The notes: generated from the sequence alone by a model not told the origin. A DNA stretch of 64,000 nt from an uncultured Gemmatimonadales bacterium (GCA_963832055.1 CAWHST010000004.1:39278-103277); one strand, 5' to 3'. Shown: positions 43,810 through 61,654, counted from the first letter of the stretch. Translations and numbers: made by a program.

Positions 43810-43924
43810 TTGAGTCTCCCGCGTCGGCACTGCTGCATCTGTTGAGAGAGCGCTCGGGTGCGGCGTCGCCGTGCTGCCGAACCCAAGCTTGCGCAGATGC
43901 GGTCAAGCCAGAGTCAAGGATGGG

Positions 43925-44611
43925 CTAGGGCGCCTCCAGCCCCACCACCACCTCCGGCGCCATGCCCAGGAAGAGTCCCGTCTCCACCACACCGGCCCGG
44001 CGAGACAACACATCCGCAACCGCGAGCGGGTCCCCGATGCCGCCGGCGAACCGAGCATCGACGATGTAGTGCCCATCGTCCGTTACGAACGCCACCTCCT
44101 CTCCCCGGCGGGTCCGGAGCACCGGGTCGGCACCGAGGTCGCGGAGAAAGGCGAGGTGGGTGGCCCAACCGAAGGGCGTGACCACCACCGGCAGAGGGAC
44201 CCGCTCGCCGAGGCGGCGGACCAGTTTGTCCTGATCCACCACGATGACCAGTCGCCGCGAATGTGCCGCGACGATCTTCTCCCGCAACAGCGCGCCGCCA
44301 AGGCCTTTGATGAGGTCGCCGGTGGGGCTCACTTCGTCGGCGCCGTCGATGGTGAGGTCGACGCGGGGATCGGCCGGCAAGTCCGCGAGTGGGATACCCA
44401 CCTGACGCGCCAGGTCGCGGGTGGCGTTGGATGTCGGGATGCCGACGACGCCGGAGAGCCGCCCCGCCGCCAGACGCCGCCCGATCTCACGTACCGCGGC
44501 ACTGGCGGTCGCCCCCGAGCCGAGCCCCACCCGCATCCCGTCGCGTACGAGGTCTACCGCCCGCCGCGCGGCGTCGAGGTGCGCGGTCCGGGCCGGCGAC
44601 GCCTCCGTCAC
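43925..44611 (-). CDS. rpiA: ribose-5-phosphate isomerase A
   Basis: GTG 44611 overlaps the zwf TGA. Strings GLGSGATA, IDGADEV and KGLGGALLREKIVA, in the last 228 aa of ORF 43925..45655. Confidence 0.9.
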   Translation of the reverse strand: MTEASPARTAHLDAARRAVDLVRDGMRVGLGSGATASAAVREIGRRLAAGRLSGVVGIPTSNATRDLARQVGIPLADLPADPRVDLTIDGADEVSPTGDLIKGLGGALLREKIVAAHSRRLVIVVDQDKLVRRLGERVPLPVVVTPFGWATHLAFLRDLGADPVLRTRRGEEVAFVTDDGHYIVDARFAGGIGDPLAVADVLSRRAGVVETGLFLGMAPEVVVGLEAP

Positions 44612-46179
44612 GGCTGTCGCCAGCGGGCGCCGTCGCGCGCGATGAACTGGTCCGCGGCAGCCGGCCCCCAGCTCCCCGCCGCATAATTGGGGAACTTCGC
44701 GGGGGCCTGCCATGCCTCGATCACCGGATCGACCACCTCCCAGGCGGCCTCCACGGCATCGGCGCGGGTGAAGAGCGTGGCGTCCCCCACCATGCAGTCC
44801 AGCAGCAGCGTCTCGTACGCGGAGTGGGCGGCGGGGCCGAACGCCTCGGCGTAGCTGAAGTCCATCCGGGCCGCCGTCATCCGGACGCCGACCCCGGGGA
44901 TCTTGATGTCGAACGCGAGGGAGATCCCCTCCTGGGGCTGCACCCGGATCGCGATCACGTTGGGGGCGATGGTCTGGCCGCGATCCAGCGGGAACATCAG
45001 GTGGGGCGGCTCCCGAAACTGCACTGCGATCTCGGTGACCCGCCTGGCCATCCGCTTCCCCGAGCGGAGGAAGAACGGGACTCCGTGCCAGCGCCAGTTG
45101 TCCACCAGGAGCCTGAGGCTCCCCCAGGTTGCCGTATTCGATGCCGGGTCCACGTCGGGTTCCTGCCGGTAGCCGGGCACCTTGACACCCTCGATGGTGC
45201 CGGGCCCGTACTGGCCTCGCACCGAATGGTCGTGGATCTCCGCGGCCGGCACGCGGCGGATGGCGCGGAGCACCTTGGTCTTCTCGTCCCGGACGGCGTC
45301 GGCCTGAAAAGCGACCGGCGGCTCCATGGCAGTGAGGCACATGAGCTGGAGGAGGTGATTCTGGAACATGTCGCGCACCACCCCGGCCTCCTCGTAATAG
45401 CCCGCGCGGTGCTCGACGCCGACGGTCTCCGCGGCGGTGATCTGCACGTGGTGAATGTGCTGGCGATTCCACACCGGTTCGAAGATGGAGTTCGCGAACC
45501 GGAAGACCATGAGGTTCTGCACCGTCTCCTTGCCGAGGTAGTGGTCGATCCGGTAGACCTGGTGCTCGGCGAACGCCGCGCTCACGGCGCGGTTCAGCGC
45601 CCGCGCGCTCTCGAGATCGTGCCCGAACGGCTTTTCGATCACCAGGCGCACCCACGGACGGACCGACCGGTGGGCGACCCGCTCCGCCACACCGCTGCGC
45701 ACCAGGTGGGTGACGGTGTCGCCGTAGACGCTGGGTGGGATGGCCAGGTAGAAGAGCCTGCCGTCGCTCTGGCGCCGGGCCGACTCGATCGCACCGAGCC
45801 GGTCGCCCAGCGACGCGTAGGTGGCGCTGGTGGTGAGGTCGCCCTGGACGTAGCTCAACCGCGGCGCGAAGCGGGCCCAGGCCTCGTCGTCGATCTCGCC
45901 GGCCGGACTCGGGTCGTCGGCGTCGCGAGCCGATTCATAGACCAGGCGCCTGAAGGCCTCGTCCGTCATCGGGCTTCGCGCCACGCCGACCAGGGCGAAG
46001 TCCTCGTCGAGCATCCCATCGCAGTGGAGATGAAAGAGCGCCGGAAAGAGTTTCCGTTTGGCGAGGTCCCCCGCGGCGCCGAAGATCACCACGGTACAGG
46101 CGTCGCCCCGCTTGAGCGGCTGCGCCACGGCGGGCTCATCGCACCGGGCCGGGGCGATCACCTCGGCCGGGATGGTCAT
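44608..46179 (-). CDS. zwf: glucose-6-phosphate dehydrogenase
   Basis: ATG 46179 overlaps the gnd TGA (ATGA). Strings VIFGAAGDLAKRKLFPAL, EKPFG, YRIDHYLGKE. Intact. Confidence 0.95.
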   Translation of the reverse strand: MTIPAEVIAPARCDEPAVAQPLKRGDACTVVIFGAAGDLAKRKLFPALFHLHCDGMLDEDFALVGVARSPMTDEAFRRLVYESARDADDPSPAGEIDDEAWARFAPRLSYVQGDLTTSATYASLGDRLGAIESARRQSDGRLFYLAIPPSVYGDTVTHLVRSGVAERVAHRSVRPWVRLVIEKPFGHDLESARALNRAVSAAFAEHQVYRIDHYLGKETVQNLMVFRFANSIFEPVWNRQHIHHVQITAAETVGVEHRAGYYEEAGVVRDMFQNHLLQLMCLTAMEPPVAFQADAVRDEKTKVLRAIRRVPAAEIHDHSVRGQYGPGTIEGVKVPGYRQEPDVDPASNTATWGSLRLLVDNWRWHGVPFFLRSGKRMARRVTEIAVQFREPPHLMFPLDRGQTIAPNVIAIRVQPQEGISLAFDIKIPGVGVRMTAARMDFSYAEAFGPAAHSAYETLLLDCMVGDATLFTRADAVEAAWEVVDPVIEAWQAPAKFPNYAAGSWGPAAADQFIARDGARWRQP

Positions 46180-47075
46180 GCCTGCTTCACCGCGTGGCCG
46201 CCGAACTGGTTCCTGAGCGCGGCGATGACCTTGGCGGAGAACGATTCGTCCTGCCGCGACGCGAAGCGCATCAGCAGCGAAAGGGTGATGACCGGCGCCG
46301 GCACGCTCTGGTCGATGGCCTCCTGCACCGTCCACCGGCCCTCACCCGAGTCGTCCACGTATCCCCGGATGTCGGCCAGGTCGGCGCTGTCGGCGAAGGC
46401 GCGCTCCGCGAGCTCGTTGAGCCAGGAGCGGACCACGCTCCCCCGGTTCCAGACCGCGGCGATCTGGTGCAGGTCGAGCTCGAAGTCCTTGGAATGGTGC
46501 AGGATCTCATAGCCTTCGGCGTACGCCTGGAGCATGCCGTACTCGATCCCGTTGTGCACCATCTTGACGTAGTGCCCCGCGCCGGTCGGGCCGACGTGGG
46601 CGAAGCCGGCCTCCGGCGCCAGCGATCGGAAGACCGGCTCGACGCGCCCGACGGCGGCCTTGCTGCCCCCGACCATCAGGCAGTAGCCGTTCTCGAGCCC
46701 CCAGATGCCGCCGCTGGTGCCGGCGTCGATGAGCTCGAGTCCCCGGGCCTGGAGGGCGGCCCCCCGCCGGATCGTATCGTGGAAGTTGGAATTGCCGCCG
46801 TCGATGATGATGTCGCCCTTGGCCAGTCCCGGCAGCACCTGCTCTATGGTCTGATCCACCGGCGCACCGGCGGGGACCATGAGCCAGACGACGCGCGGGG
46901 TCTGCAGGCGGCTCACGAGGTCGGCGAGATCTTTGGCGCCCTCCGCGCCTTCGCCCGCGAGCTCGGTGACGGTCTCGGCGCTTCGATCCCACACCACGGT
47001 CTCGTGCCCGTCCCGGAGCAGGCGGCGAACCATGTTGCCACCCATCCTCCCGAGGCCCACCATCGCCAGTCTCAT
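46176..47075 (-). CDS. gnd: 6-phosphogluconate dehydrogenase, decarboxylating (short form)
   Basis: From ATG 47075: MRLAMVGLGRMGGNMVRRL, IIIDGGNS, GTSGG, HYVKMVHNGIEYG. Intact. Confidence 0.9.
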   Translation of the reverse strand: MRLAMVGLGRMGGNMVRRLLRDGHETVVWDRSAETVTELAGEGAEGAKDLADLVSRLQTPRVVWLMVPAGAPVDQTIEQVLPGLAKGDIIIDGGNSNFHDTIRRGAALQARGLELIDAGTSGGIWGLENGYCLMVGGSKAAVGRVEPVFRSLAPEAGFAHVGPTGAGHYVKMVHNGIEYGMLQAYAEGYEILHHSKDFELDLHQIAAVWNRGSVVRSWLNELAERAFADSADLADIRGYVDDSGEGRWTVQEAIDQSVPAPVITLSLLMRFASRQDESFSAKVIAALRNQFGGHAVKQA

Positions 47076-47216
47076 GACTCTCGTCTCCCGTAATCCGGCG
47101 TGGCCGCCCAAAGTCCGCCTACTGCCTCAAAGATAGTGACGAGGTCGAAAATGGAGGGGTCGCGAACGAGCCATCCGAGCGCCATCTTTCTCAAGCACTG
47201 GTCCGCAGGAGCCAAC

Positions 47217-47515: not shown

Positions 47516-48418
47516 GTGGCCCGGCCATCCGCCTCGGTGTTGACGGGGGCGCAGACAGCGCCGGCCAGGTCACCACAACCAAGGCGCGGGCCCGTGTCCC
47601 CTTTGCTCCGTCGAACCCCGCCCAGGAATGCCACACTCACCGCCCGGAACACCGATCGCCATGACCTGTACCAGCGCGCGGTTCAGGATGTGAAAGCGGA
47701 GGGGCGATTCCTGTCCGGAACATTCGAGAGGATCGCGGGGCGCAAGGCCAAGTCATTGCGGGAGGACTTCTGTGGAACGGCCCTCCTCTGCGCCGAGTGG
47801 GTGAAGACGCGGGATCGCACCGCGGTCGGCGTGGATCTCGATCCGGAGGTGCTCGCCTGGGGCGCCGAACACAATCGCGCGCCACTCGGCCCCCGTGCCT
47901 CCTCCCTCCGGCTCCTCAGGCAGGACGTGAGGGCGCCCTGTCGCGGCCGGTTCGACGTGAGCGTGGCGCTGAACTTCAGCTACTTCGTCTTCCGCACGCG
48001 TGATGGCCTCCGGAAATACTTCGCGGGCGTGCGTCGCTTCATGGCCGCGGACGGCATCTTCGTGCTCGATGCCTACGGGGGGTACCAGTCCTGGCGCCCC
48101 CAGACTGAGCGGCGGAAGCTCCGTGGTTTCACCTATGTATGGGAGCAGTCCCGGGTGGATCCCATCGATCACTCGGTAGTGAATCACATCCACTTCGAGT
48201 TCACGAATGGCTCCCGCATCCGGCGAGCATTCACCTACCACTGGCGGCTATGGACCCTGCCGGAGATCCAGGAGCTGCTGGCCGAGGCAGGCTTCTCGCG
48301 CTCGATGGTGTATTGGGAAGACCGCGACGCTAACAAGGACGGCACCGGCCGGTACCGTGCGAGGACCCATGTGGCCCAGGAACCGGCTTGGGTCGCCTAC
48401 ATCGTCGCGGAGCGATGA
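47516..48418 (+). CDS. class I SAM-dependent methyltransferase
   Basis: Motif I context SLREDFCGTALLCAEW..AVGVDLD and a post-I acidic residue. Intact ORF, but the true start is unclear (the first ~40 aa look non-coding). Confidence 0.7.
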   Translation: MARPSASVLTGAQTAPARSPQPRRGPVSPLLRRTPPRNATLTARNTDRHDLYQRAVQDVKAEGRFLSGTFERIAGRKAKSLREDFCGTALLCAEWVKTRDRTAVGVDLDPEVLAWGAEHNRAPLGPRASSLRLLRQDVRAPCRGRFDVSVALNFSYFVFRTRDGLRKYFAGVRRFMAADGIFVLDAYGGYQSWRPQTERRKLRGFTYVWEQSRVDPIDHSVVNHIHFEFTNGSRIRRAFTYHWRLWTLPEIQELLAEAGFSRSMVYWEDRDANKDGTGRYRARTHVAQEPAWVAYIVAER

Positions 48419-48523: not shown

Positions 48524-49240
48524 TTGATCATCTCGGTCAAGAACCACTCCCGCATTCCCGATGAAGAAGTTCTGGCCACGGTTCGGGCGGTCAACCGCCA
48601 GATCGCGGAGGACTTCGAGCCCTATTGGGACCTCGGCGCCATCCTCCGCGTCACCGATCCCAAGGCCAAGCCGCTTCAGGCGGACGCGATCATCCGCATC
48701 TATCCGCACGGCCACGACTACCACTGGACCCCGACCGGCCTGCCCGAAGGCCACGTCTTCACCACACTGACCGCGCTGGCCCGGGAATCGGTTCCCTGGC
48801 TCACCTGGACCACCTCGCTGTCCCACGAGGCGCTCGAGCTGATCGCCGACCCCCAACTCAACATTCTGGTGCAGGGCCCCCATCCCGTGCAGCGCAGACG
48901 GCTGGTGTTCCACTACCGCGAGGTCTGCGATCCGGTCCAGAGCGAGACCTACCGGATCGACGGGATCACTGTCTCGAACTTCGTCCTCCCGCACTACTAC
49001 AACAGCCTGGGCGAATCCGGCGGCCGGAACGACTTTCTCGGCACCGGGCTCCAGGCCTTTCGCTGGAACGAGAACGGCATAATCGGATTCTGGGACCCCC
49101 GCCAAGGCCCGCGCGGCAAGTACGTCACCTGGCCTCAGTACGACCGGAGCCACGTAGTCGCCCAGCACTATCGCCTGAAGGGACCCACCGGCCGCCTGTA
49201 CCGGTACGCTCACCCGAGGGTAAGTGGACCTTCTCGCTAG
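48524..49240 (+). CDS. hypothetical protein (no family recognised)
   Basis: Intact 238-aa ORF. TTG start with GGAGG 4 nt upstream. Non-shadow amino-acid composition. It overlaps the STK3 start by 17 nt. Confidence 0.6.
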   Translation: MIISVKNHSRIPDEEVLATVRAVNRQIAEDFEPYWDLGAILRVTDPKAKPLQADAIIRIYPHGHDYHWTPTGLPEGHVFTTLTALARESVPWLTWTTSLSHEALELIADPQLNILVQGPHPVQRRRLVFHYREVCDPVQSETYRIDGITVSNFVLPHYYNSLGESGGRNDFLGTGLQAFRWNENGIIGFWDPRQGPRGKYVTWPQYDRSHVVAQHYRLKGPTGRLYRYAHPRVSGPSR

Positions 49241-52129
49241 GCTGAAGGCCGCTCTGGCCGGAACCTATCGGATCGAGCGCGAGCTCGGCTCCGGCGGCAT
49301 GGCCACCGTGTACCTCGCGCGGGATCTTCGGCACGACCGAGACGTGGCGATCAAGGTGATGCTGCCGAAAGTGGCGGCCGCGCTCTCCCCCGAGCGGTTC
49401 CTCCAGGAAATCCACATCGCGGCCCAGTTGCAGCACCCCCTCATCCTTCCGCTCTTCGATTCGGGACAGGCCGACGAGCTCTACTACTACGTCATGCCTC
49501 GGATCGTCGGGGAGTCACTCCGGCAGCGACTGCTTCGGGAGAAGCGTCTTCCGCTGGCGGAGGCGGTCCAGATCGGGCGCGAGATCGCCGAGGCGCTCGA
49601 GTATGCCCACGGCAAAGGCGTGGTCCATCGCGATATCAAGCCCGAGAACATCATGCTCACCGGCGGTCACCCGCTGGTGGCCGATTTCGGCATCGCCCGG
49701 GCGCTCGGCGTCTCCGGGGACGAGAGGCTGACGTCCACCGGAATGCGGTTCGGCACGCCGCTCTATATGAGTCCGGAGCAGGCGTTGGGCGACCCCGGGC
49801 TCGACGCCCGCAGCGACATCTACTCGCTGGGCTGCGTGATCTATGAGATGATCGGCGGCTCGCCGCCCTACACCGGGGCCAGCCTGCACGCCGTCCTCTC
49901 CGGGCACGTGGCGGGCAAGTTGCCGCCGCTGACCACCCAGCGAATCGGCATTCCCGCCGGACTCCGGGCCACGGTCGAGACCGCCCTGGCCCGGGAGCCG
50001 GCGGATCGTTTCCAGACCGCCGAGGAATTCGCGCGGGCGCTGGCCGACCCGTCCTGGTCCGGCAGCAGCCGCCGGCGTTGGACTCCCGTGCTCGGGCAAC
50101 GGCGCTCGGACGAATCGGACTCGGGCGAGTTGCGGTCACCGTGGCGGCCGGTGGCGCTGTCATCGTGGCTGCCTGGGCCATGTGGTCGCGGTTGAGCCCG
50201 CGTCCGGCGCTGGATTCCAATCTCGTTGCGGTCGCGCCGTTCGACGCGTTGGGGCCGGGCCTCGAGCTCTGGCGCGAGGGGCTGATGGACATGCTGTCCC
50301 GCAACCTCAACGGCGCGGGGCCTCTTCGGGTGGTATCACCTACGGTCGTGGCCCGTAACTGGTCCGGTCGAGCTGACATCGCCTCGGCGCGGCAGGTGGG
50401 CCTCGAGACCGGGGCCGGGCTCAGCGTGGTCGGGTCCATCGTGGCCGCCGGACCGGATTCGGTGCGGCTCGCGGTCACGGTGGTAGACGTCGCCACCGCG
50501 GAGCCGCTGGGTGATGTGGAATTCGGGGGAGCGGTTTCGCGGATGGACGTCGCCGTGGATTCGCTCACGATGGGCCTGCTCGCCGCGCTCGCCCGGACCC
50601 GCCAGATCGGCGCCGTCCACCTCGGCGCTACCCGGTCGAGCTCGCTCCCGGCCCTCAAGGCCTATCTGCAGGGGGAGCAGTATTTCCGCCGGGCCGAATG
50701 GGATGCGGCACAAAGAGATTTCGAGCGCGCCGCGAGCCTCGACCCGAACTTCGCTCTCGCGTTCTACCGGATCTTTCAGACCCGTTTCTACAAGGGCACC
50801 GGGCGCGACTCACTGATGTGGTCCTACGCTCTCCGGGCGGGCGAGCTGAACCGGGGACTGGCGCCTCGGGAGAGCCTGATGATCGCGGCGGACTCCCTCC
50901 TGGCCGCCGTCAGCGACGCCCCTGCCCTGGACGCCGAAGCCCAGCGCCACCGGAAGCGGGTCTTCGCGATCCTGGAGCTGGCCAATCGACGGTTTCCCGA
51001 GGACGCAGAGGTCTGGTACCAACTGGGCCGTGCCCGAGCCCGGATCGGGTACTTGATCGGCGTGCAGCCGGAGCAGGCGCTGCAGGCGCTGGACCGCGCC
51101 ATCGTACTCGACTCCTCTTTCGCGCCCGCGTACGTGGAGGCGTTCGCCTTCTCGACTGTGGCGAGAGGGCAGGAAGCAACCCGGCGGTATCTGAAGGCGT
51201 ACCTGGCGGTCGCTCCGAAAGGCATCCTGGCGGACGTGGCCCGGCTCGCTCTCGACCTAATGGATCCGAGACGCTCCGGGTCCGACGCCGTGGCCAGCAC
51301 GCTGGATACAGCCTCGGCCCGGATGCTCTATCACACGGCGAACATCTTCGAGTACGCCGCCGACTCCACCGAGACTTACATTCGCCTCGGACGCCACCTG
51401 GTGGAGCGCGCTCCCGATCCCAGCCTCGCGGCCGACCCGGCTCTGCCCCGCCGGGTGCTCGGCTTCGGCCTCGCGTTCCGGGGACACATGGCCGAAGCGC
51501 TGCGCATCCTCGGAACCGACCGGCTCTACCTCGTCTCCCAGGCCGCGGCGCTCGGTGGGATGCCGCGTGACAGCGCGAGGGCGGTGTTCGATCCGCTGCT
51601 TCGCGACGACCCCGCGCCGCTGGCTGATTTGGTCTTCGCCCTGCCGTGGTGGTCGAAGGAGCGCGATACCAGCGCGCTCAGCCGCGCCATAGACCTCGCC
51701 GGCCGGCAAGCGAAGCGGGTGCCCACGGCCCGGTTTCTTGCCGAGGCTGCTCGAGCCTGGCACACTCTTGCCGTCGGCGACAGCGTCGCGGCGCTCAGCC
51801 AGTTTCTGCAGCTGCCGGATTTCCCGAACTACTCCGGCATCGGCGACTGGGAGCGCTACACGGCGATCCGTCTCCTCAACGACGCCGGCCGCTTCCATGA
51901 GGCGCGCACCCGGCTCGACCGCGAGATCCCGAGCACGGCGTTCCCCTGGGACGTCGTGCTCTTGCTGGAACGGGCTCGTGCCATGGAGGGGCTCGGGCAA
52001 CCCACCGTGGCGGCGGATCAGTACGCCCGGGTCGCCGATCTGTGGGCGAGAGGCGATTCGGCACTGCAACCCCTCGTCTCCTCGGCTCGGGCCGCTTCCC
52101 TGCGACTGCGCCGGGCCGGTGGCCCCTAG
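49224..52129 (+). CDS. Ser/Thr protein kinase with TM segment, periplasmic domain and TPR-like region (STK3; one frame correction ~50090)
   Basis: GTG 49224. Strings TYRIERELGSGGMATVYLARDLRHDRDVAIKV, HRDIKPENIM, DFGIAR, MSPEQ. TM segment in ORF 50078.. (VAVTVAAGGAVIVAAWAMW), then LVAVAPFDALG.. and helical repeats to TAG 52127-52129. Confidence 0.85.
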
Positions 52130-53373
52130 GCCGGCCTTGCCGGTGGCGCCACCAGGAGCACCGAGGGCCGGGCAGGGTCGGCCAGCCCGAGGAAGAAGTA
52201 CCCGATGCCGGCGAGCCCGATCATCAGCGAGGGGTTGCTGCCCCGCCGAACGCCACAGGGCCAACCCAGCGGGTCCTCCGCAAACCGGGCCGCCGCCGCG
52301 GCTGCCGCTTCCCATACCAGCTCTCCGATCGCGGGCTGGCCGAACCCGCGAGACGCGTAGCGAAGCACCTCTCCCAGTCCGGCACGACCATGACAGAGAG
52401 AGAAGTCGCCATCGATCCAGCCATCGCGATCGGCCATGGAGGATCGGGTGGTCCGAATCGCCGCCTCGGCATCCTTCCGATGAGCATCGAATCCGAGCTC
52501 GACCGCACGCAAACGGGTGAGCCCGATCCCCGGTGCCCCGTGACACCACGCCACACAAGCCGGCGCGTCGTCGCCGTCCTCCTCCCGGAAGTCCGGCCAG
52601 TTGTTCTCCGACGGGCGAAACCAACGGTTCTCGTAGCGGAAGGCCTGATGCGCCGCCTCGATCATCTCGTCCTCGCCGGTGGCGCTGCCCAGCTCGAGCA
52701 GCGACCACCCTATGCCCGCGGCCCCGTGCGCCAGTCCGGTGAGCGGGCGGCAGGCCTCGATTCCTGCCGCTACCGGCCATGACCACCCGTCGTCGCTTCT
52801 GGTCGCGGCCGCAACCGTCTGGCGGCCCAGCCGCATCGCGAGATCGCGGAACGCCGGTCGGTCGAGCAGGGTGGCCAGCGCCAGCAGCGGAGCAATCGCT
52901 CCAGTGCCTCCGGTGAGGGGGTCAGCCACCAGATCGCCATCCGCCGCGTCGCTCAGGCGGTCGAGCAGCGCGATCGACCGGGCTTCCAGGTCGGAGCGCT
53001 CCAGCGACCGGCCGATCATCGCAGCGGCGTAGGCGATGCCCACTTCGCCGGTGTAGAAGCTGGCCCGTGTGGGCGGCGGGATCGTATCGAGCCGGTCCAG
53101 CGCATGACCGATCGCGGCGAGCGCCATGTTCCGCCATCGCCGGTGCGGGCTTCGCCGGCAGGCTTCGGCGAGGAAGAGGGCCACGCCCGAGCTGCCGCCA
53201 TACAGGTCGGGGCCGAGGGTTCCGTAGGTGAAATCCACCTGGTCGGAGCCGTCTTCGGCGTCCTGGGTCATGCCCATCCAGGTGCATCTGTCACCGTGAT
53301 GGAATGCGGTGTCGCACAGGTGATCCGCGATGCGTGCCGCGACCGAGAGCGCCGCCTGGGCATCGAAGGTCAT
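52126..53373 (-). CDS. LanC-like lanthionine cyclase (stand-alone)
   Basis: Intact 415-aa ORF. Strings GLAHGAAGIGW, ACVAWCHGAPGIG and FSLCHGRAGLG (Cys/Cys-His zinc-ligand motifs), with GG-containing alpha-toroid repeats. ATG 53373 overlaps the upstream TGA (ATGA). Confidence 0.85.
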   Translation of the reverse strand: MTFDAQAALSVAARIADHLCDTAFHHGDRCTWMGMTQDAEDGSDQVDFTYGTLGPDLYGGSSGVALFLAEACRRSPHRRWRNMALAAIGHALDRLDTIPPPTRASFYTGEVGIAYAAAMIGRSLERSDLEARSIALLDRLSDAADGDLVADPLTGGTGAIAPLLALATLLDRPAFRDLAMRLGRQTVAAATRSDDGWSWPVAAGIEACRPLTGLAHGAAGIGWSLLELGSATGEDEMIEAAHQAFRYENRWFRPSENNWPDFREEDGDDAPACVAWCHGAPGIGLTRLRAVELGFDAHRKDAEAAIRTTRSSMADRDGWIDGDFSLCHGRAGLGEVLRYASRGFGQPAIGELVWEAAAAAAARFAEDPLGWPCGVRRGSNPSLMIGLAGIGYFFLGLADPARPSVLLVAPPARPA

Positions 53374-54368
53374 CGGCGGTCCATGTGGAGGTCCGGAAAG
53401 TCATCCGCCGAGCCGGGATTCAAGTAGATCCGATCCAGCTGGTAGCCGTCGCGCGCCAGCCGGGAGGACAGAAGGGCGTTGCGCTCTTCGATCGAGCCGA
53501 GCGCGCTCCACTCCGGTTCGGCGAGGATGCCGGCAAGCAGCCGGCCGCGGTGTTCGCCGAAGCTCGAGCCGTCACCCGGGTCTTCCGCCAGCCCTACCCC
53601 TGGAGCCAGTCGCTTGACCAGCAATGACACGCTGGATCGGACCCACGCTCCGATCTCCTCATAGACCCTTCGCAGGATTGGTACTGTCCGAGGGTAGTCA
53701 CCCCGGGCAAGGTAGAGGACCGCGGGATCGGTCCGGTGATAGCGCAGGGGTTCGCTCAGAACCTTGAGCTGGAACCCGATTCCAGCCCGATTGAGTTGGC
53801 GAGTCATCTGGCTGACCAGACGCTCCGCTCCGGTGGGCGCGATGTGCCAGTAGACCCGGACCGTGTTGCCGTCGTCCCGGGTATCATCGGCGTCGCCATG
53901 GGCGAGATAGAACCCGGCGACCAACTCGAAGTGCTCCTTGGGAATTCGGACCGCGCCGGGCCGGTCAATGGCGACCACACCGTCCACGGGCCGGTACTCC
54001 CCAGGCGGGATCCAGAACCGGACTCCGTGCCGCTCGGCCACGATCCGGTCATCGGGTTCGACGCTTCGAGCGGTCCAGCCGGCTTGCCAAGTACCCGAGC
54101 CCGAGTTGACGGCGGACAGCCGGTCCGCGAAGTCCCGGGCGCCGACCCAGTTGGTGAAGCCGGAGGCGACGGATCCCTGAGCGGGCTCCCGGCAGTGCAG
54201 CGAGACGTAGATCGCGTCGGCCAGCGCAGACTGGAGCGGAGGCACATCCGCCGAGGGGGCGACACTGCTCGGCACCTGGTGCCGCCGGCCGAGAAAGGTG
54301 AACGACGTGGGGGAGTGGACCTGCACGGAATGGAGTGCGGTTCTGAGATCGTCACCGGCGAGAGTCAT
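53370..54368 (-). CDS. HopA1-effector-like protein (putative phospho-Ser/Thr lyase component, LanX-like)
   Basis: Intact 332-aa ORF, translationally coupled (ATGA) to the kinase upstream and the cyclase downstream. The segment VRVYWHIAPTGAERLV..GFQLKVLSEPLRYHRTDPAVLYL resembles my recollection of the HopA1-family core. The assignment is not verified by a search. Confidence 0.55.
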   Translation of the reverse strand: MTLAGDDLRTALHSVQVHSPTSFTFLGRRHQVPSSVAPSADVPPLQSALADAIYVSLHCREPAQGSVASGFTNWVGARDFADRLSAVNSGSGTWQAGWTARSVEPDDRIVAERHGVRFWIPPGEYRPVDGVVAIDRPGAVRIPKEHFELVAGFYLAHGDADDTRDDGNTVRVYWHIAPTGAERLVSQMTRQLNRAGIGFQLKVLSEPLRYHRTDPAVLYLARGDYPRTVPILRRVYEEIGAWVRSSVSLLVKRLAPGVGLAEDPGDGSSFGEHRGRLLAGILAEPEWSALGSIEERNALLSSRLARDGYQLDRIYLNPGSADDFPDLHMDRR

Positions 54369-55526
54369 GCCTCCGCCGAGCCGTTCGAGCTGAGACCGAG
54401 GACGACCTCGCGGGCGGCGTCGGGCGTCAGGAGCATGTTGATCCCAAGCTGGAGGATCGCCGCGGCGCGCCGTGGCATCTGCACCTCAGCCTGACTCCAC
54501 TCGAACGCCGACTTGAGGAGCCTGACGGCCACATGGCCCGGAAGTCGGTCTCGCAAGTCCCGGACTTCCGCCTCAGTCAGGCGCGCCGCTTCCAGGTAAC
54601 ACCTCCAGAGGTCACGGTGGGCGGGAAGAAGCCCGGCAAGGAGGGCGCCCAGGAGCCCTGCCGCCGCGTCGGGCTTGGTGCCGTCGGTCGGCTCCAGTCC
54701 CAGTACCGCTTCCGTGATGAAGGAGTGGAGCGCGCTTCCGAGGTCCCAGGCCGGATCGCCGAGCTGAGCCATCTCCCAGTCCAGGAGCAGCACCCGGACC
54801 GGGAGGCCCGTGCTGTCCTGTTGCGACCAGGACGTTGTTCCACTTGAAGTCGCCGTGAATGAGCCGGATCGGCCGCCACTCGTCGCGCAGCCGGTCGAGG
54901 GCAGCCACCGCTGCTGGTTGCGACTGCAGGGCCTGGAGGACGATCAACTGCGCCGGTGCCAGCTCTCTCAGGCTGGCGGGCGCGGGGCGGGCGAGGTCGA
55001 ATACCCAGGGTGCCGTCCGAGGCAGGACCGGCGCGATTGCCGCTTCGGGCCCGATGGGCAGGCAGTGGCATTCCGCCAGGGCCGTTGCCACGAGGCGGCG
55101 CAAAGCGGCGAGGTAAGGTGGTGAAGCCTCGACGTCCAACACATGCGGGCGGGCCGCGTCCGTGACCAGGTCGAGGACCAGGATGGAGCGCTCCGGATCG
55201 TAGTGGCGCCGGCACGGCAATGCCGGGCGGAGCCCTGCTGCCCGGCGGTCAGTGGCGACCCAGTCATACAGGGAGGCCTCGACCGCCAGCGGACCAGTGG
55301 TGCCGATCTCACGGCGGGGCGCTTGTTTCAGGAAAAAGCTGTGTCCCGGGCCGCCGAGCACGCGGAAGTTGCGGTTGCGGCCTGGCACCTCCTCGAGCCG
55401 GAGTCCGTGGTGGACCAGGGAGGGGAGGTCGAGGAGACCGAGGCCTAGAAGGTAGGGTACGCTGGATTGCAGGGTCAGCTCGGGACGAGACCCGATGACA
55501 ACCGTTCCATCGGACCGGCTGCCCAT
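54365..55526 (-). CDS. APH/protein-kinase-like phosphotransferase (LanK-like) (one frame correction at 54801-54809)
   Basis: ORF 54612..55541 plus ORF 54365..54793. Catalytic loop LIHGDFKWNNVLV, then LLLDWEMAQLGDPAWDLG (APH family pattern). ATG 55526 is preferred over TTG 55541. Removing one base from the G3/C3 runs joins ..TGQHG to LPVRVLLLDWE. Confidence 0.8.
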
Positions 55527-55571
55527 CGGGTCTCGTCCCAACTACGGACCTGCGCGCTCGAGTCCGACGCG

Positions 55572-55749
55572 CTAGCAGGTCTTCTTGCCGGTGCCGCATC
55601 CCGGCCCGCGGCGGGTCGGTTTCGGCTTCGGCTTGCTGCGTCTTCTTTTTCCCCGCCTTCTTGACGGCCATCACCGCCACGCCACTGTCCTCATCGCTCC
55701 AGTGCTGCGCCATCACGTCGCCCGAAAAGAACCTTGCCTCGTCGGTCAT
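55572..55749 (-). CDS. candidate lanthipeptide precursor peptide (58 aa after removing one base from the G4/A5 run at 55646-55654)
   Basis: ATG 55749 with AGGGAG 10 nt upstream. Corrected product: MTDEARFFSGDVMAQHWSDEDSGVAVMAVKKAGKRRRSKPKPKPTRRGPGCGTGKKTC, ending at TAG 55572-55574. That stop is 45 nt before the kinase ATG at 55526 (30 nt before the alternative TTG at 55541). Uncorrected, the frame runs 165 aa into the kinase gene, which is implausible. Confidence 0.45.
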
Positions 55750-55896: not shown

Positions 55897-56506
55897 TCAG
55901 GCGGCGACACCCAGCGCCGCCAGCTGCCCGGCGAGCCGCTCGCCGGTGGTGAAGTGAACCGTTCGCATGCCGAGCGCCTGGGCCGGCGCGAGATTGGGGC
56001 CGCGATCGTCGATGAACACGACGCGGTCGGGCGGGGCCTGCGAGATGCCGAGCGCCAGCTCGTAGATCCGGCGCGACGGCTTGGTGAAGCCGAGCCAGCA
56101 GGAGGAGAAGAACGCCTCGAAGAGGTCCCGCAGGCCGAAGCGCTCGATGCGATACAGATTGAGCTCCAGCCCCTCATTGTTGAGCGTCATCATCCGAAAT
56201 CTGCCGGTCCCCGCGAGTTGCCGGGCGAGCTCGATCGTCGGCTGGTCGGGGCGGCTCTCGGCCAGCATGAAGTCGACGAACGTCTGCCGGCTGAACTCGC
56301 GTGGCGCGGTAGAACACGGTAGCGTCGAGGTAATCGTCCAACGTCATGCGCCCCTGCTCGTAGGTGCCGACCGCATCCCGATGCTGCTGCTCGAATTCGG
56401 CCGGATCCAGCCCGAACCGCTCGGTGGCAGTTCGGCGCTGAGGCGAGCTCCACGCGTTGGTCCCCAGCACCCCGCCGATATCGAAGAAGAGATGGCTGAT
56501 GCTCAT
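55897..56506 (-). CDS. HAD-superfamily hydrolase (one frame correction ~56290)
   Basis: Motif I variant LFFDIGGVLGTN (ORF 56174..56506). The remainder is in ORF 55897..56268 (MTLNNEG.., TKPSRRIYE, VFIDDRGPNL). Its start overlaps the tal stop (ATGA-type). Confidence 0.7.
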
Positions 56507-57647
56507 TTCCCGTCGGCGGCACCCTTCTTCAGCGCCTGCCGTTTCTTGCCGATAGTGGCGAGGAGCGTCGCGTACGACTTGGCGAACTTCTCGATGCCCT
56601 CCGTCTCCAGTACCCGGGTGACGTCGTCGAAATCCACGCCGACCCGGGCCAGCCGCTCCATCCGCTCGTGGGCGTCATCCTCATGGCCGGCGAGCGTAGG
56701 GGCGACGGTGCCGTGGTCCTCGAACTTGCGAAGCGTGTCGGGCGGGACGGTGTTGATGGTATCGCGGCCGATCAGCTGGTCGAGATAGAGCACGTCGGAG
56801 TAGGCCGGGTTCTTGGTGCCGGTGCTGGCCCAGAGCGGACGCTGCACCTTCGCGCCTTTCGCCGCCAGCCGGCGCCAGCGGTCGCTCCCGGCGATCCCCT
56901 GGAACACCGTGTAGGTGAGACGGGCGTTGGCGATGCCGATGGTGCCGGCCAGGTCCTTCGCCTCCGGCCGGTCGATCTTCGGCGAGCCGGGTGTCGACCT
57001 CCGTGTCCACCCGGCTCACGAAGAACGAGGCCACGGAGGCCACCCGGTCGATCGGCTGGCCCTTCGCGACGCGGGCTTCCAGCGCCGCCAGGTATGCTTC
57101 GGCCACCTGGCGGTAGTGCTCGACCGAGAAGAGCAGGGTGATGTTGATGTTGATGCCGTCGGTGAGGCAGCGCTCGATCGCCGGCCAGCCCTCCTCGGTG
57201 CCGGGAATCTTGATCATGACATTGGGCCGGTCCACCGCCCGCCAGAGCCGCACCGCTTCGGCGATGGTGGCCTGGGTGTCGCGCGCGGCCCCGGGCGAGA
57301 CTTCGAGCGAGACGAACCCGTCGGCGCCGTCGGTGCGGTCGTAGACCGGGCGGAACAGGTCGGCGGCGCTCTGCACGTCCTCGACCGCGAGTCGCCTCGA
57401 AGATCTCGGCGTCGGAGCGGCTCGAGCCGGCCAGCTTGGCGAGGGCGTCGTCATAGTCGGTGCTCGTGCCGATGGCCTGCTCGAAAATGGTGGGATTCGA
57501 CGTCATGCCCCGCAGCCCGGCGGCGATCAGCCCGGCCAGCTCCCCGGAGCGGAGCATCGCCCGGCGCAGGTAGTCGAGCCAAACGCTCTGCCCCAGCTCG
57601 AGGAGCGCCTGCATCCGGGAGCCGGTCCTGGTCGAGGTTGCCGTCAT
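56503..57647 (-). CDS. tal: transaldolase (frame corrections)
   Basis: ATG 57647 preceded by AAGGGGGA. Strings GQSVWLDYLRR, GMTSNPTIF, FVSLEVSP, MIKIPGT, NITLLFS, FFVSRVD, WASTGTKNP. The pieces lie in ORFs 56772.., 56681.. and 56503... Confidence 0.85.
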
Positions 57648-57657
57648 CTGTCCCCCT

Positions 57658-59683
57658 TCATTTCCCTAGGAGCCGCTCGACCCGCGCCACCACGGCGTCG
57701 GCCGTAAGGCCCAGTTCGCGATAGATCCGCTCGTAGGGCGCGGACGCGCCGAAGCGGGTCAGCCCGATGACCTCTCCCTGGTCGCCGACCCAGCGATACC
57801 ACGGCATCGGATGCGCCGCCTCGACCGCGACCCGCCGCCGGATGCCGGGCGGCAGCACTTCGTTGCGGTAGCTCTCCGGCTCTCGCGCGAAGAGCTCGAG
57901 GCTCGGCACGCTCACGACCCGCGCGGGCACCTCGCGGGCGGCGAGCTTCTCCTGCGCCGCCAGCACGATCTCGACCTCGGAGCCGCTCGCCATGAGGATG
58001 ACCTCGGGCCGGCCTCCCGCCGCCTCCGACAGGATGTACGCTCCCCGGGCGACGCCGGACGCGGCACCGTGTTTCGCGCGGTCGAACACCGCGAGGTTCT
58101 GCCGGCTCAGCGCGAGCGCCACCGGGCCGTGCCGGTGGCCGATCGCGACGCGCCAGGCCTCGGCGGTCTCGTTCGCGTCGGCCGGACGGAGCACCGTCAG
58201 GTGCGGGATGGCGCGCAGGAGCGCCAGCATCTCGACCGGCTGATGGGTCGGGCCGTCCTCGCCGAGTCCGATCGAATCGTGGGTGAAGACGTAGATCACC
58301 TGCCGTTCCATCAGCGCGGCGAGCCGGATCGGCGGCCGCATGTAGTCGGAGAAGATGAGGAAGGTGGCGCCGTAGGGGAGAATCCCGCCGTGCAGCGCCA
58401 TGCCGTTCAGCACCGTTCCCATCCCATGCTCACGGATGCCGAAGTGCATGTTGCGGCCGGCGTAGTGGCCGGCCTCGAAGTCGCCGGCGTCCTTCATCAG
58501 CGTCTTGGTGGAGGGGGCGAGATCGCCGGCCCCGCCCATCAGCTCCGGCAGCCGCGGTGCGATGGCGTTGAGCACCTTCTCCGAGGCGTTCCGGGTCGCG
58601 ACCGGCTTCCCGGCGAGGAAAGCTCGGGATGTCGGCGTCCCACCCGGGCGGCAGCTCGCCCCGGTAGCGCCGCTCGAGCTCCTTCGCGCGATCCGGCTGG
58701 GCGGCCTGGAACGCGGCGTAGCGCCGCCGCCAGTCCTCCTCCAGCGCCGCTCCGCGGTCGCGGCACTTCCGCCATTCGGTGAGCGCGTCGTCGGGGACGT
58801 GGAAGGGCTCGGTCGAGGGCCAGCCGAGCGCCTGCTTGGTGAGCCGGATCTCCTCCTCGCCCAGCGGCGAGCCGTGCGCCTCGGCGGTGTCCACCTTGTT
58901 GGGGCTGCCGAACGCGATGTGAGTGCGTACGATGACCAGCGAGGGCCGGTCGGTGGCGGCCTTGGCGGCGTGGATCGCGCGCGTCGAGCGCGTCGAGGTC
59001 GTTCCCGTCCGCCACGTGCTGCACGTGCCAGCCGTACGCCTGGTAGCGGGCGCCGACGTCCTCGCTGAAGGCCAGGGCGGTGTCGCCTTCGATGGTGATG
59101 TGGTTGTCGTCGTAGAACCCGATCAGCTTGCCCAGCCGCAGGTGTCCGGCGAGCGATGCCGCCTCGTGGGAGACGCCCTCCATGATGTCGCCGTCACTGG
59201 CGATGAAGTAGGTGTGGTGATCCACCGGCCGATGGCCGCCGCCGTTGAAGACCGCCGCCAGATGCGCCTCGGCGACCGCGAACCCGACGGCGTTGCCCAC
59301 GCCCTGGCCCAGCGGCCCGGTGGTGGTCTCGACCCCGGGCGTGACGCCGTGCTCGGGATGTCCCGGCGTGCGGCTGTCCCACTGTCGGAACTGCTTGAGG
59401 TCGTCCAGCGAGAGGTCGTAGCCGGAAAGGTAGAGCACGCTGTAGAGCAGCATCGAGGCGTGGCCCGCCGAGAGCACGAACGGTCGCGATCCATCCACAG
59501 CGGGTTGGCGGGATTGTGCCGGATGTGGCGGGTGAAGAGCAGGTAGGCGAGCGGCGCCAACGCCATGGGGGTGCCGGGATGCCCGGAGTTGGCCCGCTGC
59601 ACCGCGTCCATGGAGAGGGTGCGAACCGTGTCGATGCAGAGCTGCTCGAGCGATTGGGTTGCGGAAGCGATGCTCTGTGCCAT
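57658..59683 (-). CDS. tkt: transketolase (several frame corrections)
   Basis: ATG 59683: [31 protein letters not shown]. Strings [24 protein letters not shown] and [14 protein letters not shown]-terminal half in ORF 57658..58575 (HFGIREHGM.., [17 protein letters not shown]). Confidence 0.9.
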
Positions 59684-60680
59684 TTCAATCCTCGGTCTCG
59701 CCGCGACCGCCGCGGCACCGTAGAGCGCGACGTCACCGGTGAGGATGACCTTGACCGGAATCCGGGCCATCACGCCCGAGAGTCGGCCCTTGTCGCGAAA
59801 CGCCTTCATGAAGGCGCCGGCGGCGAGCCGGCGCACGATCTTGGGCGCGATGCCGCCGGCGATGTACACCCCGCCCGAGGCGAGGACGGTGAGCGCCAGG
59901 TTGCCCGCCGCGGTGCCGTACGCCCGGGCGAAGACCTCGAGCGTCTTCGCCGAGAGCGGATCGGTGCCGGCGAGTCCGTGCCGGGCGATCACCGCGGCGG
60001 GGTCGTTCCCGGCCATCTCCTCGCGAACGCGCCGCCTGCTCCTCGGCGACGCCGGCGGCCGCGAGATAGCGATAGATACGGGCGATTCCGGCTCCCGACA
60101 GGACCCGTTCCGAGGAGACCCGGCCGAACTCCTTCGCGAGGAATGCGAGGAGATCGCGCTCGAGCGCCGTCGGTCGGCGAGAAGTCGGCGTGCCCGCCCT
60201 CCGACGGGATGGACGACGTAGCGGGACCCATCCCAGAGAAGGTAGCCCTGGCCTAGGCCGGTGCCGGCGCCGATGATGGCGATCGGTCCGTGATCGACGG
60301 CGACCCCCGGCTGGAGCACCTCCACCTCGTCGTCGGACAGGCTGTGCAGCCCGTAACCCACCGCGCCGAAGTCGTTGATGATCGTGGTTCGCGGGATCCC
60401 GATCTCCCGGGCGAGCACGCGGGCGTTGACCTTCCAGGGAAGGTTGGGGGCCTCGCAATCGCCGTCGATGACCGGACAGGCGATGCCGAAACAGGCGACG
60501 TCGGGCCGGGCGCCGGACTCGGCGAGATAGCGGGTGACCAGCGACGCCAACCCGGGTGCCGCCGCGCTGGCATAGCGCGCCTCGTGGACGATCCGCGCCT
60601 GCCCCGGCCCGCGCACCTCGAAGATGGCGAACCGTGCGTTGGTTCCGCCGATGTCTCCCGCGAGCACCCGCCTGATCATC
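59684..60680 (-). CDS. glk: glucokinase (two internal frame corrections; 3' end unresolved, no stop before tkt in the current frame)
   Basis: ATG 60680 overlaps the pgl TGA. Strings [44 protein letters not shown], ..VALYGAA. Confidence 0.8.
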
Positions 60681-61379
60681 GGCGGGCCTCGAGCTGCGCG
60701 GCCGCGGCCACGTCGGCGATCCATAGTCCCGCTCGCGCCAGCTGCCCCGGTGTCTCGCCGCGGAGCGTAGGGTCCGTCGATGACCCGAGCCAGAGCGCCG
60801 GCCTTCTTCGCCCCGGCCACGAGCCCGATCATCAGGCGAGCGTCGCGGATCACCGGCGGCGTGATGGTCAGGCGGTCGCGCGGCGGCGTGGGCGCGTTGA
60901 CCGCGAGGACCCGGCGGACGGACTCGGCGAGGGAGGCAGCGCCGGGGAAGAGGGACGCGGTGTGACCGTCCTCGCCCAGTCCCAGCACCAGGAGATCGAG
61001 CCGCTCGGGAAGTATCGCCGCGTAGGCACGCGCCGCCTCGTCGTGGTCGGGTCGCTCCCCCTCCATCCGGTGGACCTGGAGCGCGGCCGACGGGCACCCG
61101 GTCCAGCAGCGCCTCCTTCACCATCCGATAGTTGCTCGCCGGGTCGTCGGGCGGCACGCAACGCTCGTCGCCGAAGAACACGTCGATGCGGCTCCACGCC
61201 TCCCGGTCGGGCAACTCGGCGGCCAGGCGCACGTAGACTGGAGTGGGCGTCGAGCCCCCCGAGAGGGCGAGGGAGCAACGCTCCCGCGTCTCGAGGACCC
61301 GCCGGATCTCGGCGGCCAGCCGCCTGGCAGCCGATCCCGCGAACTCGGCGCGCTCGACAACCACGAGCTCCGCGGTCAC
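60677..61379 (-). CDS. pgl: 6-phosphogluconolactonase (two frame corrections)
   Basis: ORF 59733..61379 N-terminus: SLALSGGSTP.., FFGDERCVPPDDP.SNY. ORF 59123..61066: LLVLGLGEDGHTASLFPG. The corrected tail ...AAAQLEARR ends at the TGA overlapping the glk ATG. Confidence 0.85.
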
Positions 61380-61654
61380 TCAATCGCCCGCGAAAGGAGG
61401 CTGCTGGGTGGCGGCGGCGCATGCGCCGGCGAAGCGCGATGGGAAGTGCGGGGAACAGCGGAGCGGAACAACCGGGACAACAGGGCCTGCCTCGAGGACG
61501 GAAGGAGCCGTGGGGACGATTCCGCAACATAAAGGGAGGCGGGACGGGTACGCCACAACGCCGGCGATTGATTTGAGCGCCGGGCCCGAAGATTCTTGGA
61601 GGGTCGGACCCCAGGCACCGCCACTCAAACGGAATCGATTCCAAGGAGGCTCTG

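Follow-up and report, generated by a model that had tools for sequence, protein, structure and literature searches.

Does a bacterium far removed from the streptomycetes carry the genes for a class V-type lanthipeptide and, if so, is the system of a kind already described? The question is raised by four minus-strand genes at positions 52126-55749 of a 64,000-nucleotide stretch of DNA from an uncultured Gemmatimonadales bacterium (GCA_963832055.1, CAWHST010000004.1:39278-103277; hereafter the window, meaning the whole stretch), which code for a precursor peptide, a LanK-type kinase, a LanY-type lyase of the HopA1 fold and a stand-alone LanC cyclase. An earlier reading made from the DNA alone (the sequence-only reading) had proposed here a three-component kinase, HopA1-type lyase and LanC-like lanthipeptide system with an adjoining precursor, and the analyses described below support that proposal. 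In our judgment the locus is probably a class V-type lanthipeptide operon of the LanC-containing subgroup (class Vb), with the gene order lanA-lanK-lanY-lanC, in an uncultured soil Gemmatimonadales. It is a further member of class Vb, a kind already described, and not a new class; what is new here is the phylum, the precursor family and, from a survey of other genomes, how widely the cassette is spread among soil phyla that are uncultured.

The three modification enzymes

The enzyme genes are coupled by two 4-nt ATGA overlaps, one at 54365-54368 between kinase and lyase and the other at 53370-53373 between lyase and cyclase, and the precursor gene lies 45 nt upstream of lanK (Table 1). The coordinates of the open reading frames (ORFs), both overlaps and the kinase and cyclase motifs given in the sequence-only reading were all recovered exactly, and each of the three Pfam families that it had named was matched by the corresponding protein, with E-values that lie well outside what chance would give.

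On the kinase, APH (PF01636) matched as two pieces (E=1.6e-8 and 6.3e-4). The motifs HGDFKWNN (residues 224-231) and DWE..GDPAWDL (248-262) are present, and K67, E83, H224, D226, N231, D249, W250 and E251, which form the ATP-binding Lys/Glu pair, the HGD...N motif and the DWE motif, are invariant among 23 sequences. The top NCBIfam model was NF038156 (lant_syn_V_LxmK; E=1.7e-22, 80 bits, profile positions 20-344 of 347). A single-sequence phmmer search of the PDB returned aminoglycoside-type kinases only and did not reach LxmK. A family profile of 23 members from related loci matched LxmK (9dk1_A) at E=1.2e-27 over positions 31-362, nearly full length, against 9.6e-8 for the best small-molecule kinase or APH, about 20 orders of magnitude weaker. 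These profile comparisons place the kinase family with LxmK and apart from antibiotic or small-molecule kinases.

The middle protein had been assigned to the HopA1 family, and this assignment held; with the placement of the kinase, both sequence comparisons that the sequence-only reading had named as able to refute it came out in its favour. The middle protein matched HopA1 (PF17914) at E=1.3e-32 and, by phmmer, LxmY, which is the chain named 'Lyase' in the LxmKY complex of lexapeptide (9dk1_B), at E=3.1e-7. An AlphaFold model of the lyase made with 17 homologues (predicted local distance difference test, pLDDT, 89.9; predicted template modelling score, pTM, 0.89) had LxmY as its top Foldseek match over the whole length (E=6e-18, template modelling (TM) scores 0.75/0.79), well ahead of the HopA1 effector of Pseudomonas (4rsw; E=5e-8, TM 0.46), and the lyase regions of ThurKC and CuvL gave marginal matches (E ~0.07-0.6). 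Residues R171, K202, R212 and Y219 do not vary among the aligned sequences; their spacings are 31, 10 and 7, compared with 32, 10 and 7 for R187, K219, R229 and Y236 of CaoY, three of which matter for phosphate elimination as judged by mutagenesis (PMC9486802). Neither the lyase nor the precursor is covered by an NCBIfam model.

The cyclase matched LANC_like (PF05147) at E=2.6e-54 over profile positions 3-347 of 350. It contains GLAHGAAG (213-220), WCHGAPG (276-282) and LCHGRAG (326-332), and among 22 sequences from many phyla three of the zinc ligands, H216, C277 and C327, never vary, while conservation of the fourth, H328, is at least 90%. The cyclase is most closely related to LanM cyclase domains (TIGR03897, E=1.3e-77, 261 bits; LicM2, 6st5, E=1.4e-17); the class I cyclase NisC is a far weaker match (E=1e-4), and matches in the PDB also include LanCL1 and LanCL2 (E=6e-8 to 6e-5). 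As a side observation, the LanM-like affinity suggests that the split system borrowed its cyclase from, or shares ancestry with, a LanM-type cyclase.

Frameshifts in the window

In the window as given, lanK is split over two frames (ORFs 54612-55541 and 54365-54793) and lanA loses its Cys-containing end through a frameshift. The sequence-only reading had correctly noted a small ORF directly upstream of the enzyme genes, which starts at the ATG at 55749, but had remarked on neither the frameshift at 55638 nor the split kinase. Among the matches listed, the closest relative is L001, a region identical with L003 that lies on contig_27325 of MFD02840.bin.2.331, a metagenome-assembled genome (MAG) from the Gemmatimonadales; it shows 96.8% identity over 12.6 kb. 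Alignment to L001 reduces each break to one extra base, at 54823 in lanK and at 55638 in lanA, and removal of both bases restores an uninterrupted kinase and the precursor MTDEARFFSGDVMAQHWSDEDSGVAVMAVKKAGKKKTSKPKPKPTRRGPGCGTGKKTC. In L001 the kinase is one intact gene of 386 aa and the small gene has 58 aa; in L002, a more distant locus whose lyase is 74% identical, the kinase is intact at 391 aa and the small gene, in the same place, has 63 aa.

Between window positions 47000 and 60000, thirteen single-base insertions or deletions (indels) separate the window from L001 in these 12.6 kb, about one per kb (positions 59779, 59697, 59695, 59481, 58980, 58614, 57393, 56979, 56305, 55870, 55638, 54823 and 50097). 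They disrupt the genes for transketolase, transaldolase, a HAD hydrolase, the precursor, the kinase LanK and a neighbouring Ser/Thr kinase (the last through a missing base near 50097), all of which are intact in L001, as judged where the gene calls of that locus permit. Because housekeeping genes that are intact in relatives are broken likewise, we regard the indels as sequencing or assembly errors; on this comparison, the operon is most likely intact in the real organism. Apart from the operon, the window resembles an unpolished long-read assembly, and split or fused ORFs elsewhere in it are to be distrusted.

The precursor peptide

A GGGAG motif lies about 10 nt ahead of the precursor ATG. 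A large protein collection contained 34 metagenomic homologues of the precursor, and wherever the organism was named it was a Gemmatimonadales MAG. The leader is conserved (MT[DH]EARFF[SA]GDVMAQHWSDEDGGVA), the middle is a Lys/Ala/Pro-rich stretch of variable length, and the end is near-invariant (KPKPKPT[RK]RGPGCGTGKKTC). In the alignment of homologues Cys51 and Cys58 are conserved, positions 45 and 53 are Thr or Ser, and position 57 is Thr except in the most divergent member. Even in the most divergent precursor (L011, ...PTRNRPGCETTGPACATH) there is a Thr six positions ahead of the first Cys, and Thr four to five positions ahead of the second. Between L001 and L008, the proportions of synonymous and non-synonymous differences (pS and pN) are 0.61 and 0.18 in the leader and 0.52 and 0.11 in the core. 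Since synonymous differences far exceed non-synonymous ones, the comparison indicates that the precursor is a real, constrained protein-coding gene under purifying selection, in leader and core alike. Among the matches listed, precursors of this type are confined to Gemmatimonadales loci and to one further locus, L059, and the precursor gene lies directly ahead of lanK in L001-L011, save L004, whose contig begins inside lanK.

Some members of the family depart from this pattern. The divergent precursor at L010:3569-3753 ends ...KAPCPKTSVTRRKKKKK, with a single Cys ahead of Ser/Thr, and the one at L011:3067-3312 has a histone-like (PAKK)n repeat before ...PGCETTGPACATH; the constant feature of the family, when these two are included, is the polybasic stretch. 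The contig of L059 is binned as Thermoleophilaceae (Actinomycetota); at L059:3255-3473 it has a Gemmatimonadales-type leader (MTHVASFFSGEVMAQHWSDGDDG...) followed by a core that appears frameshifted, and at L059:7982-8782 a Ser/Thr kinase 70% identical to the Gemmatimonadales one. This resemblance reflects either mis-binning or recent transfer.

Class assignment and comparison with known systems

Class Va lanthipeptides (cacaoidin, lexapeptide, pristinins, massatides, triantimycins and rosins) are made with LanK, LanY, LanX and LanD, carry a C-terminal aminovinyl-methylcysteine (AviMeCys) and involve no LanC (PMC11186320, PMC12291118). Class Vb, as described in papers that cite its original report (Pei et al. 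2022, JACS), has LanK, LanY, a dedicated LanC and (methyl)lanthionine ((Me)Lan) rings only, and its sole characterised member in those accounts is SmoA from Streptomyces (PMC11186320, PMC12291118, PMC12328550); what follows sets our locus beside those descriptions. This division corrects the sequence-only reading. The kinase, lyase and LanC arrangement had been said to define the lexapeptide, cacaoidin and pristinin loci, which are class Va clusters; LxmK/X/Y had been equated with kinase, lyase and cyclase, while LxmY is the HopA1 lyase and LanX (the LxmX family) is a kinase-fold protein, for one member of which, RosX, a role as the AviMeCys cyclase has been shown (PMC12291118). By the citing accounts, the kinase, lyase and LanC arrangement is that of class Vb, already described with SmoA (PMC11186320, PMC12328550).

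GC content at third codon positions was too noisy a guide for gene calling over the whole window at 70% GC, and Pfam searches of long ORFs near the cluster were used instead. Among the long ORFs scanned at 39.6-63.8 kb no LanB-, LanM-, LanKC- or LanL-type domain was found, as had been claimed, nor any flavoprotein decarboxylase, protease or ABC transporter; several of these ORFs had no Pfam match, and the first 39 kb was not scanned for these domains. Apart from the Pkinase of the neighbouring Ser/Thr kinase, no second APH-like gene, and no reductase, was found among the ORFs scanned within ~10 kb, some of them again lacking a Pfam match, and the gene calls of the close relative, up to 6 kb from the cassette, included no LanB, LanM, LanKC, LanL, decarboxylase, protease or transporter. 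A second LanC, LanY, LanK or precursor copy was found nowhere in the 64-kb window, of which the 415-aa cyclase is the sole LANC_like protein.

The locus thus combines a stand-alone LanC bearing its zinc ligands and an adjoining precursor with, among the ORFs scanned, no LanD or LanX, which is the gene set of class Vb; (Me)Lan rings are predicted for the product from this gene set. As far as the citing papers describe SmoA, the two systems share a stand-alone LanK (PF01636), LanY (PF17914) and LanC, the lack of LanD and LanX, so that (Me)Lan and no AviMeCys is expected, and a small precursor whose C-terminus contains Cys and Ser/Thr. They differ in phylum, Gemmatimonadota here against Streptomyces for SmoA, and probably in the precursor, which here consists of a leader of acidic/aromatic character, a Lys/Pro/Ala-rich stretch that varies, and a two-Cys core of about 14 residues. 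The rings of SmoA are described in those papers as overlapping ('stapled'), whereas those predicted here would be sequential. The only streptomycete-type locus among the matches listed, from Kitasatospora (L065), has a LanY 34% identical to the present one.

With the class Va systems (LxmK/LxmY/LxmX/LxmD; CaoK/CaoY/CaoX/CaoD; pristinin, triantimycins, rosins) the locus shares dehydration by LanK and LanY, as reflected in the superposition of the lyase model on LxmY, the kinase profile match to LxmK and the conserved catalytic Arg/Lys/Arg/Tyr of CaoY (PMC9486802). Those systems, however, need LanD and LanX for AviMeCys, often have methyltransferase and F420 reductase genes and have no LanC (PMC11186320, PMC12291118), whereas none of LanD, LanX, methyltransferase or F420 reductase genes occurs here among the ORFs scanned and a zinc LanC takes their place. 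Membership of class Va was therefore ruled out by the presence of LanC, by the lack of a decarboxylase or second APH-like gene within ~10 kb among those ORFs and by the lack of a kinase paralogue in the window. Classes I-IV were likewise rejected, the LANC_like protein being stand-alone and LanB, LanM, LanKC and LanL missing from the ORFs scanned at 39.6-63.8 kb. Classes III (LanKC) and IV (LanL) use the same chemistry, namely phosphorylation, elimination by an OspF/SpvC-related lyase and cyclisation, and the LanL cyclase also has zinc ligands, but they do so with one three-domain polypeptide containing a Pkinase-type kinase and an OspF-type lyase, in contrast to the three proteins here, with their APH and HopA1 folds. 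The cyclase domain of class II LanM (LicM2, 6st5) is the best sequence match for the present cyclase, with all zinc-ligand motifs aligned; the LanM dehydratase domain has no counterpart here.

Distribution of the cassette

To place the locus among other bacteria, one genome per GTDB species was scanned with an alignment of the lyase, which yielded at least 77 loci (L003-L079), with the phylum taken from the record title. The LanK-LanY-LanC (K-Y-C) cassette occurs in at least ten phyla: Acidobacteriota (at least 27 loci), Actinomycetota (at least 14, mostly non-streptomycete MAGs, with the Kitasatospora locus as the one streptomycete-type among the matches listed), Gemmatimonadota (at least 11), Chloroflexota (at least 10), Pseudomonadota (at least seven), Myxococcota (at least two) and Eremiobacterota, Bacteroidota, Planctomycetota and Bacillota (at least one each), with at least two more loci unclassified. 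Wherever a listed locus (at least 77) has a sufficiently long contig, the genes for kinase, lyase and LanC follow in this order, on the same strand and directly adjacent. On a more speculative reading, the cassette would be at home mainly in Acidobacteriota, Gemmatimonadota and Chloroflexota and less so in Streptomyces, and the present locus would then give access to a large family of lanthipeptides yet to be characterised. Among the matches listed, the nearest relatives of the window locus are Gemmatimonadales genomes, which bears out the non-actinomycete context suggested earlier.

Loci outside the Gemmatimonadales carry other precursor families. In an Acidoferrales MAG (L040:2288-3325) there are four tandem precursor copies about 296 bp apart, with Lys-rich leaders and ending ...RIPPECTGLTLRCTGGSK, and a proteobacterial MAG (L070:3168-3524) has two tandem copies; such multi-copy precursors are a classic signature of systems for RiPPs (peptides made by the ribosome and modified after translation).

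Pairs of LanK and LanY beyond Streptomyces had been reported in 2020, 391 in number, mostly from Actinobacteria and Firmicutes with a few from Cyanobacteria, Planctomycetes and Proteobacteria (PMC7794033), and candidate precursors have been reported from cyanobacteria (PMC9486802). We looked in the literature for class V lanthipeptides from Gemmatimonadota, Acidobacteriota, Chloroflexota or Myxococcota and found nothing relevant, and in the literature found there is no characterised lanthipeptide of this class from Gemmatimonadota or from any phylum but Actinomycetota (the massatides, for example, come from Streptomyces leeuwenhoekii). The sequence-only reading, which held all characterised examples to be actinomycete, is right, as far as the literature found shows, for characterised compounds but does not extend to the genes, given the LanK/LanY pairs reported elsewhere and the phyla counted here. 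The cassette is widespread in abundant, poorly cultured soil phyla, which makes it useful for genome mining and for studying the evolution of split and fused synthetases, and a minimal four-gene cluster with a precursor short enough to synthesise is an easy test case for heterologous expression. No new chemistry or principle is revealed.

Proposed pathway and alternative readings

The first three steps of the pathway that we propose are modelled on characterised homologues and the fourth is speculation. LanK and LanY would form a heterodimer, on which the conserved N-terminal leader (MTDEARFFSGDVMAQHWSDEDGGVA) would dock. LxmKY is a heterodimer by structure, with the leader predicted to lie on the kinase C-lobe (PMC12141560). 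For the present pair a heterodimer is suggested by analogy; the two genes are adjacent with a 4-nt overlap, kinase and lyase genes are neighbours in at least 77 loci, and the tight translational coupling of the enzyme genes fits a stoichiometric complex. LanK would then phosphorylate core Thr/Ser residues (Thr45, Thr53, Thr57) with ATP, and LanY would remove the phosphate to give dehydrobutyrines (Dhb), a dehydration reconstituted in vitro for CaoK and CaoY (PMC9486802). The zinc LanC would add the thiols of Cys51 and Cys58 to the dehydrobutyrines, as LanC is described to direct the rings of SmoA in the citing accounts (PMC11186320, PMC12328550). The best-fitting rings would be Dhb45-Cys51 (i+6) and Dhb53-Cys58 (i+5), with residue 57 left dehydrated or unmodified; two sequential methyllanthionines, 45-51 and 53-58, are a tentative prediction from spacing, to which we give somewhat less than even weight. 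Finally, an unlinked protease might cut the leader and an unlinked exporter secrete the product, in which the Lys/Pro-rich stretch may remain, making it strongly cationic.

Several points weigh against this interpretation. The core is very short and has only two Cys, and the Lys/Pro-rich stretch that dominates the peptide is unusual for a lanthipeptide. The lyase is just 23-25% identical to LxmY and so distant from characterised enzymes, and the kinase, whose 80 bits fall far short of the LxmK equivalog cutoff of 315, is no equivalog but a distant relation. Nearby genes for a protease, a transporter or immunity were found neither among the ORFs scanned nor in the relative's gene calls; the topology of the rings, the site of leader cleavage and the route of export are conjecture, the product being a prediction from the genes; and were the frameshifts real, this copy would be dead. 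Even so, we hold with good confidence that the cluster functions in lanthipeptide making in the real organism.

That the cluster is instead a decayed remnant, with genuine lanK and lanA frameshifts forming a pseudogene array in this strain, would agree with the window as it stands, where lanK occupies two frames and lanA lacks its Cys-containing core. We consider this highly improbable: indels occur at about one per kb, and the genes for transketolase, transaldolase, the HAD hydrolase and the Ser/Thr kinase are equally broken, yet intact in near and more distant relatives, and a free-living bacterium with all of them broken is implausible. The contigs of the nearest MAGs, moreover, are named contig_NNNN, a style of naming that suggests a long-read assembler. 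As biological explanations of the breaks, a programmed frameshift or a pseudogene was accordingly discarded on the 13 indels in 12.6 kb that also hit housekeeping genes. A different objection takes the genes as intact and changes the substrate. Phosphothreonine lyases act on kinase activation loops, and eukaryotic LanCL proteins add thiols to dehydroamino acids in proteins. By analogy, the enzymes might act on a cellular protein, such as the neighbouring Ser/Thr kinase, with the small ORF incidental or regulatory. The tetratricopeptide repeat (TPR) Ser/Thr kinase gene does adjoin LanC in nearly all Gemmatimonadales loci, its adjacency kept even where its orientation has changed (L010); the cyclase also matches LanCL1 and LanCL2, export, protease and immunity genes are lacking nearby among the ORFs scanned, and effectors of the HopA1 and OspF families target host proteins (PMC9486802). 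The small ORF, however, has a leader/core layout with invariant Cys and Ser/Thr positions under purifying selection and directly precedes lanK in L001-L011 (with the exception of the truncated L004), cassettes in other phyla come with tandem precursors, kinase and lyase are nearest to the peptide-modifying LxmK and LxmY, and the cyclase is much nearer to LanM cyclase domains than to LanCL proteins. Ser/Thr kinases are, besides, very numerous in these phyla, and the adjacency may be inherited synteny. We therefore think a protein-directed system very unlikely.

The enzymes might also act on the precursor without making a lanthipeptide, leaving a dehydroamino-acid product or, as LanCL does with glutathione, adding an external thiol. 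LanK/LanY pairs also serve RiPPs that are not lanthipeptides, among them thioamitides and kintamdin (PMC9486802, PMC9415263, PMC7794033), and Thr57 adjoins Cys58, between which a ring is not easy. Set against this are the two invariant Cys, whose i+6 and i+5 distances to conserved Ser/Thr persist even where the core is divergent (L011), and the full zinc-ligand set of lanthionine cyclases; in addition, (Me)Lan rings are what the single characterised K-Y-C system produces, according to the papers describing it at second hand (PMC11186320, PMC12328550). Such a product thus seems to us very unlikely as well, and a class Vb lanthipeptide remains the preferred reading. What that lanthipeptide does is a separate matter. 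The near-invariant core, the histone-like Lys/Pro/Ala stretch, the lack of immunity, export and protease genes among the ORFs scanned and the conserved kinase neighbour hint at a role other than that of an antibiotic. It is tempting to speculate that the peptide has a conserved physiological role rather than being an arms-race antibiotic; the fuller version, in which a polycationic lanthipeptide highly conserved across the order serves in physiology or signalling, possibly sensed by the adjacent TPR Ser/Thr kinase or acting with it, and is not a typical secreted antibiotic, we would put forward as conceivable though doubtful.

Genomic neighbourhood

Table 1 Features of the locus, with positions counted from the first letter of the window
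Feature	Position	Strand	Remarks
lanA-like precursor gene	55572..55749	-	58 aa + stop; one spurious extra base at 55638 in the window
LanK, class V-type peptide Ser/Thr kinase, APH fold	54365..55526	-	386 aa; one spurious extra base at 54823
LanY, HopA1-fold phosphoSer/phosphoThr lyase	53370..54368	-	332 aa; start overlaps LanK stop (ATGA)
LanC-type zinc cyclase, stand-alone	52126..53373	-	415 aa; start overlaps LanY stop (ATGA)
Putative stem-loop across the precursor stop codon, between lanA and lanK	55545..55581	-	status uncertain
Ser/Thr protein kinase with TPR repeats, convergent to LanC	49224..52129	+	conserved neighbour; place in the system not established

The cassette sits in a pentose-phosphate neighbourhood, with flanks at window positions 43900-47100 and 55900-61400. 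One flank carries the genes for 6-phosphogluconolactonase (pgl), glucokinase (glk), transketolase (tkt), transaldolase (tal) and the HAD hydrolase. On the other side come, nearest, the convergent TPR Ser/Thr kinase, a conserved 238-aa protein without a Pfam match and a weakly methyltransferase-like protein and, farther on, 6-phosphogluconate dehydrogenase (gnd), glucose-6-phosphate dehydrogenase (zwf), ribose-5-phosphate isomerase (rpiA) and fatty-acid synthesis genes. The upstream flank of L002 differs, so that the conserved unit consists of the precursor and the K-Y-C genes together with the downstream Ser/Thr kinase block.

The TPR Ser/Thr kinase has 968 aa in the relative, matches Pkinase (E=7e-46) and TPR in Pfam and is intact in L001 and L002; its stop overlaps that of LanC (52126-52129). 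The loci in which it adjoins LanC are L001-L011 and L017, from Gemmatimonadales, and L059; the L010 copy follows LanC on the same strand. Its link to the cassette could be functional, as a sensor or regulator, or plain inherited synteny.

A scan for operon promoters and terminators gave hits no more numerous than in shuffled sequence. The putative stem-loop is a GC-rich predicted hairpin inside an 86-nt fold (-37.5 kcal/mol, z=-1.79, weak) and is kept only in close relatives, with one compensatory pair; it is possibly, and with uncertainty, an attenuator or a site of processing, such as lanthipeptide operons are known to contain. Beyond the Ser/Thr kinase, the methyltransferase-like ORF at 47516-48418 (+; Methyltransf_25, E=3e-4, below cutoff) is upstream of the gene for the 238-aa protein at 48524-49240 (+), which overlaps that kinase gene at its start and accompanies it in relatives.

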